From the IMG/VR virus record IMGVR_UViG_3300042013_000103: 64,000 nt of DNA. One strand, written 5' to 3'. The notes beneath the pieces are model-generated. The model saw only the letters and a program-made list of their open reading frames with translations, did no database searches and was not told the origin of the DNA. The translations under genes were made by a program, and so were the position numbers. This stretch comes from a virus. Taxonomy: Duplodnaviria > Caudoviricetes. Shown in pieces: positions 1,073 to 45,161 of this stretch; the first letter of the stretch is position 1, and the number at the start of each line of letters is the position of its first letter.

Positions 1073-1627
1073 CTAGTCTACCCGCTGGGATTCCAAATAA
1101 TTAGTGAAGATTTTGGTCGCTGCTACGAGTTCAAATGAACGGTTTCTCAACAGCTCGCCAATCACGCTATCAAAGAAATCGCGATTGACCTTAACCGAGA
1201 GTCGACTTGGATCGCCTATAACATCATGCAACCTCTGCTGCACTGCAACCCACAGATTCTCATCTACAGGATAAAGGGTATAAGAGCGAATGGTGCGCGC
1301 GCTCGTCCCTTGACGTAAATGCAAGCTTTGCATACGTCCCTCTAAACGATTGTGCAACTCACGCCACTTCGCTTGGTACGCGTCGAGGGTGGCTGCACTC
1401 TTTGCCAGCAGTGCCAAAGGAGGCTCTGCCAAGCAGACATCGAGTACCGAACAGAACTCAATGGTGAAATTGTCATGGGCGTCCTGCATTTCTGCCAGGT
1501 CCGTCACCGAGCTAACTTCTGTTATATAGTTGGTATCACACAGTTTACTGAACTGGACACCATCCGTCTTGTAACGGTCGTAAGTGGACGCGGGTAACAC
1601 AATTAACCTGGTCATGGAAGCAAGCAC
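1073..1627 (-). CDS. Conserved hypothetical/virion protein (positional phiKZ gp119 equivalent)
   Basis: 184-aa ORF between DnaB and MCP; GTG start, alternative ATG at 1615. Confidence 0.7.
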   Translation of the reverse strand: MLASMTRLIVLPASTYDRYKTDGVQFSKLCDTNYITEVSSVTDLAEMQDAHDNFTIEFCSVLDVCLAEPPLALLAKSAATLDAYQAKWRELHNRLEGRMQSLHLRQGTSARTIRSYTLYPVDENLWVAVQQRLHDVIGDPSRLSVKVNRDFFDSVIGELLRNRSFELVAATKIFTNYLESQRVD

Positions 1628-1752
1628 CTATAATGGAGATTAGGCTAACGTAATGAATACATACTGTTACGTACACACACGGGCGACATTTTACTAACCC
1701 TGCTTATGGTACATAGAGGTCTACATTATTTTTGCAGCAAGGAAATGGATAA

Positions 1753-3291
1753 ATGGCATCTCCAAAACAACTCATGATTAGCTGTGTTACCTTGCTCTGC
1801 TTGGAGCACCGAGACGATTCACCGGCGTCACCATCCACTGAGCTGATCAATGAAGTTATCGAAACGTTGCCTGTCAAGGAAACCACGGTTGACATCGACC
1901 ATGGCATGCAGACCTTTATGGAGCTGCGCAAGCTGGTTCAAGAACTGAACCGCAAACTGAAGACCCAGTTCCCGTCGACCTCTGAAGTCATGCAGATGAT
2001 TCAGATCAGCTGCCGGGAAGAAGTGTTCCTGTACGAAGCGGCCCGTGACGCTATTAATGAAGACTTCCCGGATGGGCAGTCCATTATGCGCCGGGTGAAC
2101 TCGTACCGTTCCACGCTGCACACGTACATGAACGAAGAACGCATCAAAGCGTTGGTCAAGGACTGCTCAGCGAAGCTGCTGTTCAACCGTGGCGGTGCGG
2201 TGGATCCAGCGGCGCTCGTGAACGACATGGTGGAAAAAGTCGCCCCGTACCTGAAAGCCCGTTCGGAGATGCGTCACCCGGCTGAGATTGGGTCCATGGA
2301 CTTCTCCAACCCCACCGGTGTGGCGGACTACTTCGAGTCGGTGAAGAACACGCTCTCGTCGGAAGGTGCCTTCAAGACTGGTTGGAAAGGCTTTAACCGC
2401 ATGCTGGGCAAACTGGGGGCCATGCGTCGGGGTGAGTTCATCTTAGGTGGTGGTCTACAGCACAACTTTAAAACGGGGTTGTCCCTGGCGTTATTCTGTC
2501 ACGTGTGTTTGTTCAACAAACCGTTCATGCGGGACAAGAACAAGAAACCCATGGTGTTGTTCGTCACCCTCGAGAACGAGATCCCGGACAACCTGCTGAT
2601 CATCTACGCCTACATCAAAGAAAACGAAACCGGCGAGAAGGTCGACGTTGGGCTGATCAACAAACAGGAAGCGGCTGATTACGTGTGTGCCCGGATGGAA
2701 GAAACCGGGTTCACCGTGAAGATGGTGCGCTTTGACCCTTCGGACTTTAGCATTGGGGGCTTCACCAACTACCTCGATGGGATTCAGGCACAGGGTTTTG
2801 AGATTCAGTACCTGTGCGTGGACTACCTCAACATGCTGCCGAAGACGGGGCTGGACGCACAAGTGGCCGGCGATGACATTCGCTTGCTGTTCCGTCGGAT
2901 GCGCAACTACACCACGCCTCGGGGCATTACCTTCTTCAGTCCCCACCAGCTCTCCTCGGACGCCCTCCAGCTTTCGCGAGAGAACACCGAGGACTTGGTT
3001 AAGGTGGTGGCGAACCGTGGCTACTACGACGGTTGCCGACGTCTGGGCCAGGAACCCGATTTGGAGATCCTGTTCCATATTGTGAAGATGGGGGGCAAAT
3101 CGTACTTCACCGTACAACGGGGCAAACACCGGAACACCGTAACCCGTGCGGAAGACCAGTACTTCGTGTTGCCGTTCCAAGACATCGGGACCATCCCGTG
3201 GGACATCGACAAAGACGAAGACTACACCCTGTCCGCCGTGGGGCGTAAACAAGGGGCCGACGGCGACGAGTTCGACGACAGCTGGGCGTAA
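1753..3291 (+). CDS. dnaB: DnaB-like replicative helicase (phiKZ gp118-like)
   Basis: TGWKGFNRMLG, Walker A variant GGGLQHNFKTG, Walker B LCVDYLNM, FSPHQLS, QRGKHR. Confidence 0.92.
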   Translation: MASPKQLMISCVTLLCLEHRDDSPASPSTELINEVIETLPVKETTVDIDHGMQTFMELRKLVQELNRKLKTQFPSTSEVMQMIQISCREEVFLYEAARDAINEDFPDGQSIMRRVNSYRSTLHTYMNEERIKALVKDCSAKLLFNRGGAVDPAALVNDMVEKVAPYLKARSEMRHPAEIGSMDFSNPTGVADYFESVKNTLSSEGAFKTGWKGFNRMLGKLGAMRRGEFILGGGLQHNFKTGLSLALFCHVCLFNKPFMRDKNKKPMVLFVTLENEIPDNLLIIYAYIKENETGEKVDVGLINKQEAADYVCARMEETGFTVKMVRFDPSDFSIGGFTNYLDGIQAQGFEIQYLCVDYLNMLPKTGLDAQVAGDDIRLLFRRMRNYTTPRGITFFSPHQLSSDALQLSRENTEDLVKVVANRGYYDGCRRLGQEPDLEILFHIVKMGGKSYFTVQRGKHRNTVTRAEDQYFVLPFQDIGTIPWDIDKDEDYTLSAVGRKQGADGDEFDDSWA

Positions 3292-3305
3292 GACAAAAAA
3301 AATAA

Positions 3306-3343
3306 GGCATAAGCCCCCTCCGCGATGGAGGGGGCAATATGTC
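3306..3343. terminator. Bidirectional hairpin terminator (GGCATAA-stem-AATATGTC family)
   Basis: GCCCCCTCC-gcgat-GGAGGGGGC stem between convergent genes. Confidence 0.8.
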
Positions 3344-3347
3344 GTGT

Positions 3348-4439
3348 TTAGCCTTGAACGTAGATCCGTTCGAACTCCAGCTTAAGGTGCGTTTGTACCC
3401 GCTGCATGGCATCGGCCGCTTCCTCGAGGGTGTCGGCGGTGAAGCTGTACATCGTTTGTCCTATGGTTGCTTGGATCAGTGCCAACTTTGGAACGGGGGT
3501 GTCACTCGGCATGGACCGATTGCACGCCGCTTCTCGCTGTTCCCGACGGATCCGGTTCAAGTTATTGGAAAGGTGCGTGTAGGCCAATGCCACCCCTTCG
3601 ATACTCAGGGCTAGGGCACCGTCTGGTAGTAAGTCCTTAGTTCGATCTTGGGTGGTTTCCTGCTGTTGCTCTGGTGGCGTGTCGACACTCAGTGGAGGAT
3701 TTGAGTTGGCTAACGCCATTCGTACCATGTTGGCGACCACCGCATACGACAGTGGACCATCGAATTGCTCGGGTGCATTCATGCTCACCCTGAGTTCGTG
3801 ATTCTTATCGGTCCACGGCCACATAACCGAACCGCTCACCTGGACGTGATCTAGATTGCGCAGGTGCGCATAGGCCAAGAAAATCGCCTTGTCCAAGGGG
3901 GTGGAATAAGCCACGTAGCTAACCCGTTCTTCGTCACTGGTCACCAGTTGCAGTTCTTGCAAGTACAGCATTGCATTCCGCAGGGTACTCCCTGCGTTCA
4001 CCAAGTCTGAAAACTTAATGATGTTGTCGGAAATGTCCACGTGCGGTCCTTTTAAATTACTGTTGTCATTTCTTACGTTTATTGGGGTGAATTCATTGAT
4101 TGGCAGGGGGGCGTACTGCCGGTCGTCGCGTAGGGCTAAAAAGACCCGACGGGTGAGGTTCGTCAAAGGCCCCAACCGATGAGTGTGTTTCAATCCATCC
4201 GTCACCACTAGCTGTTGGTTTTCCGCCAACGCCAGAAACCGATCATTGGAAAAGTAAATCCTGTACCCCGCTTGCAGGAAAAACCGCATCGCCTCAAGCA
4301 CGGAAAATGCTTGGGTACGGGGTAAGTAAGCGGCTAAGGCTTCGCGGTTGATGCCCGGGGAATTGAACACGTAAGCTTTACGGTCCCCACCGGACATTTT
4401 TTCCAACGTGGCGACGCGAATCATCTGGGGCTGGTACAT
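3348..4439 (-). CDS. Hypothetical protein (363 aa)
   Basis: Long ORF with ATG and RBS AGGA, colinear with neighbours. Confidence 0.8.
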   Translation of the reverse strand: MYQPQMIRVATLEKMSGGDRKAYVFNSPGINREALAAYLPRTQAFSVLEAMRFFLQAGYRIYFSNDRFLALAENQQLVVTDGLKHTHRLGPLTNLTRRVFLALRDDRQYAPLPINEFTPINVRNDNSNLKGPHVDISDNIIKFSDLVNAGSTLRNAMLYLQELQLVTSDEERVSYVAYSTPLDKAIFLAYAHLRNLDHVQVSGSVMWPWTDKNHELRVSMNAPEQFDGPLSYAVVANMVRMALANSNPPLSVDTPPEQQQETTQDRTKDLLPDGALALSIEGVALAYTHLSNNLNRIRREQREAACNRSMPSDTPVPKLALIQATIGQTMYSFTADTLEEAADAMQRVQTHLKLEFERIYVQG

Positions 4440-17347: not shown

Positions 17348-17821
17348 TCACTCGACAGCAATCATCCATGGCGGGTACACGCAGACAACTTGGTTTGGAA
17401 TGTGCTTGGACATTTCTTCGATCATTTCTTGAACGATGTCAAAACTCAACTTCCCGTTCCCGCAGCCCAAAGGCGGCATCACGATTTTCCATTTCGGGTC
17501 GATTCCACCTTCTTCGCCAATGTTGGTTGCCATCCAGTGCAGGCCGGCAGCCACATAGTCGTACGTGGAGTTATTGCGCCACTGCTCTTTCGTCGGGAAC
17601 ATCAGGTAGTGTTTACCGTCATCCCCTTTGTAGAGCGCGCAATTCCCGATCGTGATGATGCGGTACTTACAGTCGTGTTTGTACTTTGCCATCAGGTCTG
17701 GGTGACGTTCGGCAAACGCTTTCGCTACACCCGCCCCCATAACACCTTGGGTGTTAACTGTAACAACGTAAAGATCTCCAGGTTCCTTGAAGATGTCTTT
17801 ACCGATAATGAAATCAGCCAT
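17348..17821 (-). CDS. Macrodomain ADP-ribosylhydrolase, DarG-like
   Basis: VNTQGVMGAGVAKAF, MFPTKEQWR (FPTK lysine), MPPLGCGNGKL are hallmark DarG-type macro motifs. Confidence 0.9.
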   Translation of the reverse strand: MADFIIGKDIFKEPGDLYVVTVNTQGVMGAGVAKAFAERHPDLMAKYKHDCKYRIITIGNCALYKGDDGKHYLMFPTKEQWRNNSTYDYVAAGLHWMATNIGEEGGIDPKWKIVMPPLGCGNGKLSFDIVQEMIEEMSKHIPNQVVCVYPPWMIAVE

Positions 17822-42666: not shown

Positions 42667-44415
42667 ATGACCGACCTAAGCTACACCAAGGCAGACGTAC
42701 TGGGGATCGAAGCAAAGCACATCACCTACGTCACCGACCAGTATGGCAAATACGACGACGCCCATGTCGTGAAAGAAATCATTCACTTGAAAGACGGTCG
42801 GAAAATCCCCAACCTCAAAGTGATCACCAACTACGAGCGGCCATTTTGGGTCACCGAGAAAGGGCGGCAGAACCACACCGAGAAGAAAGATTATGAGTAC
42901 GTCGCTAACACTCGCAAATACATGTCTACTCAAATCAACCTCAGCCGTTCCATTGCACGGGTACTGGGCGATTACAGCATGGGCCCCAACCCACGTTTAC
43001 GACAGTTGGCTCGCAGTCCTTTCCTTTACGGTTCAGACGTGTCGGGCGGTGCTTGTTTAAAGAACGCTTACCGTAAGCGGTGCCCGGACTTGATCTCGAA
43101 GAACACCGTGGCCGGTGGCGACATCGAAACCAACGTTTACGAGGCCGACAAAGACGGGCAGATCATCTGCATGTCCGTGACGTACAAGACCAAAGTGTTC
43201 CTGGCGTACTACAAAGGCTGGATCAAGGACATCCCGGACGTCGTCGAGCAAACGCACAAACTGGCCACGGAAGTGCCGGAGCTCAAAGAACTGATTGAGA
43301 AGCGGGGGTTGGTGCTGGAAGTGGTGGTGTGTGACACCCCTGCCCAAGTGGCGATCGACTGCATCGCGAAGCTGCACGAATGGAAACCGGACTTCTTCTC
43401 GTTCTGGAACATGGACTTCGACATTAGTCGCATCCTGAAGAACCTGAACCAATACGGCGTGGACCCGAAAGATGTGTTCTCGGACCAGTCCGTACCGAAG
43501 AACTTCCGCTACTTCGACTACAACCAAGCGCAAGCCAAGACCACCACCGCATCGGGCGTGACCAAGTCCAAGTCGATGGAGGAACTGTGGAACTGGGTGA
43601 CCACACCGGCACACTTCCAGTGCATCGACGCCATGTCGATTTACCGGGCATTGCGGATTGCGAAAGGCAAGGAACCTTCTTATGCCCTGGACCGTATCCT
43701 CAAGAAAGAACTGAAGATCAGCAAGCTGAAGTTTCCGGGGGCTGAACACCTCACCGGCATCGACTGGCACAAATACATGCAGACCGAACAGAAAGTGTTC
43801 TACGGTTTGTACAACATCGTCGACAGCATCCGTCTGGAACAACTGGACGAACACGTCAACGACCTGTCGTCGTCGATCACGATGTTTTCCAAGTACTCGG
43901 ACTTCAAGAACTTCAACTCTAACCCGAAGCGGCTGTGCGACGACATGCATTTCTGGTACCTGGCCCGTCCAGAACCCCGCGTGATCGGTTCCTCGTCGGA
44001 CAAAATGGTGCACGACCTCGACCGTTACGTGATCGGGCACGAGGATTGGATCACGACCTTGCCATCGTACATGGCAGGGCCCAACGGCATGGCATGCATT
44101 AAAGGCTTCCCCGGGTACGGGTCACTGATCTGGTCGCACGTGGCCGACTTGGACATTGTGTCGACGTACCCGACCGTGTCGCAGAACTTGAACATCGCCC
44201 GGGAAACCGTGGTGATGGAGTTCGGGCAGATGAAAGGGATTCCGGAAGTCTGGCGCCGAGAAGTCGGGGTGAACTTAACCGGGGGTCGGACCAACGCCGT
44301 GGAGATCTGTCAGAAGATTCTGAAAGGCCCTTCCATGGACCAGTTGCTGAAGAACTACCTGGCTATGAAAGCAGGGGCACCGATGGAGGCACAACCGTCT
44401 AGTCTGGGAAAGTAG
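42667..44415 (+). CDS. polB: Split family-B DNA polymerase, 3'-5' exonuclease / N-terminal subunit (phiKZ gp82-like)
   Basis: ExoI GDIET, ExoII FWNMDFDI, ExoIII YNIVDS, PolB motif A DLDIVSTYP near the C-terminus; motifs B and C absent. Confidence 0.9.
   Translation: MTDLSYTKADVLGIEAKHITYVTDQYGKYDDAHVVKEIIHLKDGRKIPNLKVITNYERPFWVTEKGRQNHTEKKDYEYVANTRKYMSTQINLSRSIARVLGDYSMGPNPRLRQLARSPFLYGSDVSGGACLKNAYRKRCPDLISKNTVAGGDIETNVYEADKDGQIICMSVTYKTKVFLAYYKGWIKDIPDVVEQTHKLATEVPELKELIEKRGLVLEVVVCDTPAQVAIDCIAKLHEWKPDFFSFWNMDFDISRILKNLNQYGVDPKDVFSDQSVPKNFRYFDYNQAQAKTTTASGVTKSKSMEELWNWVTTPAHFQCIDAMSIYRALRIAKGKEPSYALDRILKKELKISKLKFPGAEHLTGIDWHKYMQTEQKVFYGLYNIVDSIRLEQLDEHVNDLSSSITMFSKYSDFKNFNSNPKRLCDDMHFWYLARPEPRVIGSSSDKMVHDLDRYVIGHEDWITTLPSYMAGPNGMACIKGFPGYGSLIWSHVADLDIVSTYPTVSQNLNIARETVVMEFGQMKGIPEVWRREVGVNLTGGRTNAVEICQKILKGPSMDQLLKNYLAMKAGAPMEAQPSSLGK
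44406..44412 (+). other. Candidate -1 programmed ribosomal frameshift site (G GGA AAG)
   Basis: X XXY YYZ heptamer in correct phase, immediately before the polymerase TAG; -1 frame closed by TAG at 44400 and open to 44792. Confidence 0.6.
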
Positions 44416-44792
44416 TTTACCGGTGGAAGCGCTACGACGGCTATGAGTGTTCGAGTAAAGGGGACACGCGTTACAGTGCCCTCTTTGCGGTGCTGCCTGA
44501 CGGACGGACGATCGAGGAAGCGTACCAATTGGATTGCAAGGGGTGGCGCTCAGAGAGCAATGACTGGCGCTATGGCAAAGGAAAGCCTCCCAAAGACACC
44601 TCCGTCGACCTGTGGGCCGAGTACAAGCAACTCTGGAACACGTGGGCCGATGCCAACCCCGAGCTGCTGCAAGAGCTGGCCACCACGGCGAAGGAATACC
44701 ACGACTGCACCTTGTCGGACATGTTCGCCTCCACTGACATATCCCAAGCCAGAGCCCTGGCGGAGATCTTGAATGAACGCGCTGTCGTTTGA
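44412..44792 (+). CDS. NADAR-like ADP-ribose glycohydrolase domain (5' end reached only by frameshift or non-canonical start)
   Basis: In-frame VVYRWKRYDGYECSSKGDTRYSALFAVLPDGRTIEEAYQLDCKG...LSDMFASTDISQARALAEIL. Motif spacing (E.S(S/T)K..S(A), E.AYQ..K, D...QAR) recalls DarT1-associated NADARs. Confidence 0.65.
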   Translation, partial: VVYRWKRYDGYECSSKGDTRYSALFAVLPDGRTIEEAYQLDCKGWRSESNDWRYGKGKPPKDTSVDLWAEYKQLWNTWADANPELLQELATTAKEYHDCTLSDMFASTDISQARALAEILNERAVV

Positions 44793-44804: not shown

Positions 44805-45161
44805 ATGAACCTGACTCAATGGTTGTTGGTCAAGCTGGCGGAAGAAGCCAATGAGATGGGCAAGGAAGCTCTAAAGGGCAGTCAGTTTGGGTTGGATTCC
44901 GATTTTCAAGGGACCACCAACGCAGAGTTGATCACCAAGGAGTACAACGACCTCAGGGCCGTCATTGGGTTTGGAACCCTGTTGAATAACCAGAGTCATT
45001 TTGCCAAGTTATTCAGTGATCTTCCTGATGCGGTGTTTTGGCCCCGGGCTTACAAGCTGAGCCACTACGCCTTGCAGTCGCACCGCATTGGTTTACTGAC
45101 CTTAAGCGAAGAGCAACTACGTCAACTGGAAGGCTACGCCAAACAACACCCCGTCAGTTAA
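44805..45161 (+). CDS. MazG-like nucleotide pyrophosphohydrolase
   Basis: LVKLAEEANE...K...FG...NAELITKEYNDL fits the EExxE...ExxD metal-binding pattern; RBS AAGGGG. Confidence 0.7.
   Translation: MNLTQWLLVKLAEEANEMGKEALKGSQFGLDSDFQGTTNAELITKEYNDLRAVIGFGTLLNNQSHFAKLFSDLPDAVFWPRAYKLSHYALQSHRIGLLTLSEEQLRQLEGYAKQHPVS

Follow-up and report, generated by a model that had tools for sequence, protein, structure and literature searches.

A candidate programmed -1 frameshift appending a NADAR-like domain to the DNA polymerase of phiKZ-like jumbo phages

The polymerase gene and its 3' end

The stretch of DNA analysed here (the window; 64,000 nucleotides of IMG/VR virus record IMGVR_UViG_3300042013_000103) carries on its plus strand, at 42667-44415, an open reading frame (ORF) for the N-terminal subunit of a split B-family DNA polymerase, followed in the -1 frame by a second open frame that encodes a NADAR-like domain and has no start codon of its own ahead of its conserved part. 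A preliminary description, made from the sequence alone, had proposed that a programmed -1 ribosomal frameshift fuses the second frame onto the first; we here examine this proposal by comparing the junction, the domain and their surroundings across related phages.

The polymerase ORF matches phrog_3011 (DNA polymerase) at E 2e-221 over profile positions 4-570 of 576, and is shown by tblastn to be homologous to the polymerases of phiKZ, 201phi2-1, PhiPA3 and Noxifer; at the DNA level, the gene is about 70% identical to those of Noxifer, PS119XW and Viktualia. Judged by these similarities, the window belongs to a Pseudomonas jumbo phage of the phiKZ-like type and its ORF 42667-44415 is a homolog of phiKZ gp82, the polymerase subunit that comprises the N-terminal domain, the exonuclease and a portion of the palm, and that has been named DNAP-N (bioRxiv 10.64898/2026.09.30.755723). 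Virion structural genes adjoin the polymerase gene in the window, as they do in phiKZ. The window subunit is shorter than phiKZ gp82 (582 aa versus 638; L002, 591-2507), and tblastn alignments between such sequences break near residue 348; in the alignments, this break is as expected if the window subunit lacks the 'little finger' insertion, residues 350-415 in phiKZ, an element found in some Pseudomonas chimalliviruses only, according to the cryo-electron microscopy (cryoEM) preprint (bioRxiv 10.64898/2026.09.30.755723).

The junction between the two frames is made up of the following features:

42667..44415, plus strand: zero-frame ORF, N-terminal subunit of a split B-family DNA polymerase, 582 aa (phrog_3011, tblastn)
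44400..44402, plus strand: TAG in the -1 frame, the upstream limit for a shift that reaches the open frame (sequence)
44406..44412, plus strand: slippery heptamer G_GGA_AAG in the phase of the polymerase frame (sequence)
44413..44415, plus strand: zero-frame TAG directly 3' of the heptamer, a possible 'shifty stop' (putative stimulatory role)
44412..44792, plus strand: -1-frame extension of 126 codons plus TGA, predicted NADAR-fold domain (phrog_9995, AlphaFold2 model)
44490..44492, plus strand: GTG, the first canonical start in the -1 frame (truncated 100-aa product of gene callers)

The polymerase ORF ends in CTG GGA AAG TAG, and the heptamer at 44406-44412 matches the X_XXY_YYZ phase. The -1 frame, closed by the TAG at 44400-44402, is open from 44403 to the TGA at 44790-44792 (129 codons) and contains no ATG, GTG or TTG upstream of the GTG at 44490. 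A shift at the heptamer would add 126 residues to the 582 of the subunit, for a predicted fusion of 708 aa. The interval between the upstream limit and the G-Y-E motif of the domain, referred to below as the permissive interval, is only 12 codons long. All coordinates in the preliminary description (ORF end, heptamer, TAG 44400-44402 and open frame to 44792) were found to be correct on re-reading of the sequence. As an alternative, it had offered internal initiation at an ATG of the polymerase frame (44383, with AGGGG 5 nt upstream) and the same shift, yielding a free NADAR protein; this route is unlikely and was rejected, there being no counterpart of this ATG in the relatives.

The junction was further compared with contigs, not raw reads, from two public rhizosphere-metagenome runs (depths 55 and 205) that belong to different studies; one of the runs may be the window's own source. 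Over 43900-44492, the contigs show no differences and no gaps. Because both contig sets match the junction without a gap, an assembly indel, the first concern of the preliminary description, is very unlikely.

Conservation of the downstream frame and of the heptamer

The 129-codon frame matches phrog_9995 at E 2.9e-51 over profile positions 2-122 of 124, starting from residue 6, and free-standing homologs begin with M-(Y/F)-x-W at this same point. Initiation at GTG 44490 would delete eight residues that are invariant in an alignment of 40 sequences (E15, S17, G20, D21, R23, S25, A26 and A29), and with them the N-terminal motif G-Y-E-C-S-S-K-G-D-x-R-(F/Y)-S-A, bearing out the original remark that this start would cut off conserved N-terminal motifs. 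Against seven relatives, the extension has a non-synonymous divergence (dN) of 0.21-0.45, while the synonymous divergence (dS) is saturated; for its first 26 codons, dN is 0.10-0.35. On these rates, the extension evolves under purifying selection, and so does its start-less N-terminus; since the latter is conserved, carries the motif and has a low dN, it would appear to be translated.

Junctions were collected from GenBank phages (L001-L004, L048-L050), from IMG/VR contigs retrieved via the domain (L005-L021) and, independently, via the polymerase C-terminus (L052-L063), and from the closest relative, obtained from ENA (L044-L047). In all phiKZ-type junctions that could be reached, the domain follows the polymerase homolog. 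It is in the -1 frame in 18 distinct junctions, and in 18 of these 18 the stretch from the final -1-frame stop to the domain contains an in-phase X_XXA_AAG, in one of three forms:

C_CCA_AAG (10 lineages): phiKZ, PA7, PhiPA3, PS119XW, 201phi2-1, Viktualia, Phabio, L044, L055 and L061
G_GGA_AAG (1 lineage): the window
A_AAA_AAG (7 lineages): Noxifer, L015, L053, L054, L056, L057 and L063

C_CCA_AAG occupies the position homologous to the window heptamer and A_AAA_AAG lies slightly upstream; CCCAAAG, GGGAAAG and AAAAAAG together make up precisely the set of highly shift-prone heptamers of E. coli-type decoding (PMC5009743). In the 15,772 polymerase codons of the 24 distinct junction sequences, X_XXA_AAG occurs in phase 23 times; 18 of these heptamers sit in permissive intervals, one for each -1-frame lineage, and only five lie elsewhere. 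By this count, the occurrence of the in-phase heptamer at the junctions exceeds chance.

The polymerase tail 5' of the heptamer varies in sequence and length; the CCC/GGG group has L, V, A, S, N or P as its last residue ahead of the heptamer, the AAA group A, G or L. Despite this variation, the third base of the codon before the heptamer is X in every lineage, which therefore points to selection acting at this codon on the nucleotides rather than on the protein. The replacement of CCC by GGG in the window is, by alignment with its relatives, a coordinated change of three bases in which slipperiness was kept.

The junctions also differ in what they offer for initiation. In 12 of the 18 -1-frame lineages, the permissive interval lacks a canonical start (ATG, GTG or TTG). 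Where PhiPA3 has ATG and L044 GTG, the codon is GTT in the window, ATA in phiKZ, GTA in Phabio, ACT in L055 and ACA in L061, and the AAAAAAG group as a whole has no candidate start for the domain. In this group, the polymerase stop lies 14-35 non-conserved codons past the heptamer, which in several lineages puts it within the sequence coding for the domain, and the -1 frame runs straight into the domain; because the polymerase stop is thus downstream of the domain start, termination-reinitiation cannot deliver the domain here. In the CCC/GGG group, the stop follows directly after the heptamer in 10 of 11 lineages.

The two parts are also found naturally fused in frame. When 1.84 billion representatives were searched with a profile of the domain, 867 clusters were returned; in P0341 (698 aa), polymerase and domain form one uninterrupted ORF (L064, 4001-6097), with phrog_3011 at residues 29-541 and phrog_9995 at residues 560-677. 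P0341 is 27% identical to the window polymerase over 544 residues (E 4e-51), and its contig (NCBI GCA_036681025.1, 45.5 kb) also encodes PhiKZ_MCP, at 1577-3751. In this distant relative, the fused protein is an ordinary gene product, as would be expected if the frameshift product is functional. The preliminary description had looked to related phages for a conserved slippery junction or an in-frame fusion; the former is present in all 18 -1-frame junctions and the latter in P0341.

The contig L064 is that of a distant phiKZ-like phage, filed inside the assembly of another organism. Of other long proteins that contain the domain, P0378 was ruled out as a polymerase fusion by BLASTP against P0002, and no polymerase family appears in the PHROG matches of P0379 or P0309.

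In the PhiPA3 record (L048, NC_028999), the polymerase coding sequence is annotated at 103-1929, about 580 nt short of the stop defined by homology (2507), and the frame with the C-terminal polymerase homology is open for 86 codons only; this polymerase gene, as recorded, may contain a frameshift or an intron, or be wrongly annotated. The window ORF 3' of the NADAR-like frame (44805-45161, plus strand) matches phrog_4856, nucleoside triphosphate pyrophosphohydrolase, (E 4.7e-11) only in its first 55 residues and is without a Pfam match; a small ORF is also found 3' of the domain in 201phi2-1 and L044.

Fold and relationships of the appended domain

AlphaFold2, given the alignment of 40 sequences, models the domain with a predicted local distance difference test score (pLDDT) of 96.6 and a predicted template modelling score (pTM) of 0.90. 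In a VIA-align comparison of this model with 48,161 PDB representatives, the three NADAR structures rank top, at Z-scores that are moderate near 8 by the program's own caveat: the DarT1-associated NADAR of G. lovleyi (8bat; Z 8.8, 118 aa, 3.5 Å), E. coli YbiA (2b3w; Z 7.7) and a Phytophthora NADAR (8bau; Z 7.2), the next match being at 4.5. The best match of an ESM Atlas shape search is a mostly viral cluster, 27% of whose members match PF22397 NADAR-DarT1 (template modelling score 0.71, 2.2 Å over 108 residues). Foldseek also places a NADAR first in the PDB, but at an E of about 0.6, and NADAR recurs weakly in AFDB and BFVD; of the structural searches, VIA-align and the Atlas shape search alone yielded a clear signal. 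Elsewhere, the domain is fused to SLOG (YAcAr, cpYpsA), DUF4326 and DUF488-N3a domains, and embedded in giant polyvalent virion proteins; the NADAR and Macro domains of jumbo phages have those same partner domains (PMC7824862).

In seven IMG/VR contigs of 16-100 kb (L016, L020, L022, L024, L027, L034 and L036), the domain lies within frames of more than 2,000 codons, which encode polyvalent virion proteins (phrog_16227); it adjoins a cpYpsA SLOG domain in L027 and lies upstream of a RecD/PIF1-type helicase in L034.

Several results at the level of sequence weigh against membership in the NADAR family. Neither the domain nor any of the 40 aligned members has a Pfam match at E ≤ 1; the hidden Markov models (HMMs) PF08719 and PF22397 find nothing in the genomes of five relatives; and hhalign against the T4 gp30.3 family (PF08010 profile, 39 sequences) gives a non-significant E of 0.06 over 7 columns, and is likewise not significant against T4 gp30.3 alone, although one insignificant local alignment set D106 opposite the His in the T4 catalytic position. 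Searching the PDB with the family profile returned chance matches only, and an ESM Atlas feature search with the domain gave no usable match. The catalytic Glu and Lys of NADAR domains lie on the core helix and are accompanied by a third residue, Asp, Glu or His (PMC11543638), and in T4 AdfN the former are E36 and K43 (PMC11825919). In the 40 domain sequences, E38, Q42, K46 and D106 are invariant; they resemble E36, Q40 and K43 and the L-K-H123 of T4, with the Glu-Lys spacing off by one residue. Catalytic equivalence is argued by motif resemblance only, between E38-x3-Q42-x3-K46 plus D106 here and E-x3-Q-x2-K plus Asp, His or Glu in NADAR.

The domain thus predicted has the same fold class as T4 AdfN (gp30.3) and the DarG1-type NADARs (Z 7.2-8.8 to 8bat, 2b3w and 8bau). 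Like these, it is phage-encoded and small, and it resembles them in an invariant Glu...Gln...Lys helix motif and an invariant acidic residue in an L-x-D/H motif; unlike these, it shows no HMM or profile-profile similarity and has a Glu-Lys spacing of 8 instead of 7. At about 125 aa, it is without the N-terminal extension of the DarT1-associated NADARs, and it is appended to a polymerase instead of being free-standing. A role like that of AdfN and the DarG1-type domains would be one in counter-defence against DarT (PMC11825919, PMC11543638). The label of the preliminary description, a guess from motifs, thus holds for the fold but finds no match among the NADAR HMMs; by its modelled fold and its context, the domain would be NADAR-like without being a demonstrated member of the family, and an ADP-ribosyl glycohydrolase activity may be hypothesized for it.

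The proposed shift, its alternatives and its meaning

The conservation of the heptamer, the start-less ORF, the purifying selection and the in-frame fusion all support the frameshift fusion put forward in the preliminary description, and we consider it likely that a conserved -1 programmed frameshift makes a polymerase/NADAR-like fusion of about 708 aa. Ribosomes decoding CUG_GGA_AAG would meet the heptamer with UAG next, and a minority would slip back by one base, with tRNA-Lys re-pairing with AAA instead of AAG and tRNA-Gly with GGG instead of GGA; alternatively, the stop would wait in the A site and the peptidyl-tRNA-Lys would be the only tRNA to slip. The slipped ribosomes would then read GUA GUU UAC CGG UGG and so on, for 126 further codons. 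The majority product would be the 582-aa subunit, and a fraction would be extended to about 708 aa by the C-terminal NADAR-fold domain. The adjacent zero-frame stop may, by analogy, slow the A site (compare the 'shifty stop' in Weiss et al. 1987, as cited in PMC5009743).

The closest precedent for the site is lambda gpG/gpGT, whose slippery sequence G_GGA_AAG is the heptamer of the window, as the preliminary description had stated; a strong RNA stimulator is found in neither (PMC5009743). In lambda, a minor product with a C-terminal extension shares its N-terminal body with the major product (PMC5009743), and the same would hold for the window. They differ in what is joined, a chaperone and a tail-binding domain in lambda, a replicative polymerase subunit and an enzyme-like domain in the window, and in the zero-frame stop, which abuts the heptamer in the window, unlike in lambda. 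A precedent within the replisome is E. coli dnaX, where a -1 shift takes place on A_AAA_AAG, the identical heptamer of the AAAAAAG lineages. The dnaX shift truncates the protein (to gamma), at an efficiency of about 50% through an upstream Shine-Dalgarno (SD) element and a downstream hairpin, whereas the phage shift would extend the polymerase and no conserved stimulator was found for it.

Several observations weigh against a frameshift. There is no conserved downstream hairpin in the eight lineages compared, the z-score for RNA structure being between +1.3 and -1.7 in seven of them (+0.64 in the window) and -4.0 in Phabio only, and no conserved upstream SD-like element was found, the window having a GGAGG 16 nt upstream. 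Because no conserved stimulator was found, the efficiency of the shift is, by analogy, probably low, a few percent, on the order of lambda G-T; a stimulator is not obligatory, since lambda G-T also lacks one. The recombinant phiKZ polymerase of the cryoEM study works without the extension (bioRxiv 10.64898/2026.09.30.755723). Psa21, RVTF4 and their IMG/VR relatives (L006-L011 and L050 together) carry the domain in the +1 frame, with no -1 heptamer at the junction. In this clade, the polymerase ORF overlaps the domain ORF by 22 nt, the junction lies about 25 nt before the polymerase stop, and every member has GAA_AAG_AAG together with an NTG codon (GTG, CTG or TTG) before Y-Q-W; from the sequence, it could be that the NTG initiates or that tRNA-Lys slips by -2, from AAG onto the overlapping AAA. 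Finally, six of the -1-frame lineages have possible starts, where a free protein could arise by coupled initiation: the stop and start overlap in PhiPA3 (TAATG), L044 (TAGTG) and PS119XW (GTGA), a GTG follows four to five codons past the stop in 201phi2-1 and Viktualia, and Noxifer has TTG or GTG only more than 100 codons upstream. In lineages with an ATG or GTG near the stop, to judge from these codons, free domain protein may be co-produced.

Of the alternatives, the one that survives best, though we regard it as improbable, extends this last point to all lineages: there would be no frameshift, and a free domain of about 14 kDa would be produced by termination-reinitiation or from a non-canonical start (GTT in the window, ATA in phiKZ). 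It would account for the free-standing homologs that start with M-Y/F-x-W exactly at this point, for the three stop/start overlaps, for the annotation of 201phi2-1 gp143 from a GTG, and for the NTG that always precedes Y-Q-W in the +1-frame clade. However, a canonical start is missing from 12 of the 18 -1-frame lineages, with codons such as ACT (L055) and ACA (L061) in its place; the position of the polymerase stop downstream of the domain start rules out reinitiation in the AAAAAAG group; and the invariant in-phase heptamer, the matched third base and the in-frame fusion are left unexplained.

Transcriptional slippage, in which an extra A is put into the A-run by the phage RNA polymerase such that part of the mRNAs encode the fusion in frame, would give a protein identical to that of the -1 ribosomal shift, and the AAAAAAG lineages do have six A in a row; in the window and ten further lineages, however, the run is only three A long, far too short for known slippage, and the conserved pattern X_XXA_AAG is phased by codons, which matters to ribosomes and not to RNA polymerases, making this explanation very unlikely. 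That an indel in the G3A3 run splits an in-frame fusion, or that the downstream ORF is decaying, is the least credible of all: homopolymer runs are classic indel sites and gene callers give a truncated 100-aa ORF only, but the two contig sets are identical at the junction, the same frame relation holds in more than 18 independently sequenced phages, and dN is far below the saturated dS.

A scan for sigma-70 promoters and terminators between the two ORFs found none, which carries little weight for phages that use their own RNA polymerases; the window contains no phage tRNA-Lys; and no RNA run was found to contain the locus, with fragments of relatives only in wastewater runs that may be RNA.

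As to function, DarT toxins ADP-ribosylate single-stranded DNA and block replication. T4 counters DarT1 with AdfN, a free NADAR (PMC11825919), and chimalliviruses counter DarTG2 with AdfM, a macrodomain protein that acts as an ADP-ribose eraser inside the phage nucleus (PMC13309987). The window also encodes a macrodomain protein (17348-17821, minus strand; 157 aa; PF01661, E 2.6e-9), which by its sequence may be an ortholog of AdfM. AdfM, a free protein of macro fold that is translated from a start of its own, has been studied by experiment, whereas the domain discussed here is NADAR-like and its function predicted. From its modelled fold, we infer that the domain would be an ADP-ribosyl glycohydrolase acting on ADP-ribosylated DNA bases, that is, on damage of the DarT type. 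Carried by the polymerase, it would enter the phage nucleus and reach the replication fork, next to the template strand.

These considerations lead to a wider scheme, which is offered tentatively and may well prove wrong: that recoding across the phiKZ-like nucleus-forming phages yields a second form of the polymerase with its own DNA de-ADP-ribosylase, which would ride into the nucleus and, placed at the single-stranded template, remove guanine-ADP-ribose of the DarT1 type ahead of synthesis, complementing AdfM, which would deal with DarT2 lesions; in the Psa21/RVTF4 clade, a -2 (or +1) shift on GA_AAA_G, which is of a rarer kind, would lead to the same product.

No description of this recoding, of a frameshift in phiKZ gp82, of PHIKZ082.1 or of a NADAR in phiKZ was found in the literature, in agreement with the preliminary description, which knew of no fusion made in this way. 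The GenBank records inspected annotate fragments, such as PHIKZ082.1, truncated ORFs and, in Viktualia, spurious small ORFs, and the published structure and assays of the phiKZ polymerase concern the 638-aa product, with no mention of an extension (bioRxiv 10.64898/2026.09.30.755723). The event proposed would be a -1 frameshift of known type in a new place, with a function that is predicted from the appended domain.

Among nucleus-forming phages, phiKZ serves as the model, and its polymerase structure was recently solved from the annotated 638-aa subunit. If the fusion is made, a replisome component would be unannotated in every genome record inspected, and the replicative polymerase would join the short list of phage genes with a -1 frameshift beyond those for tail chaperones and capsids. 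Repair, tethered to the polymerase, of DNA ADP-ribosylation inflicted by host defence would then be a testable counter-defence strategy, and the C-terminal extension of a polymerase subunit would suggest a simple route by which an accessory enzyme may be imported into the phage nucleus.

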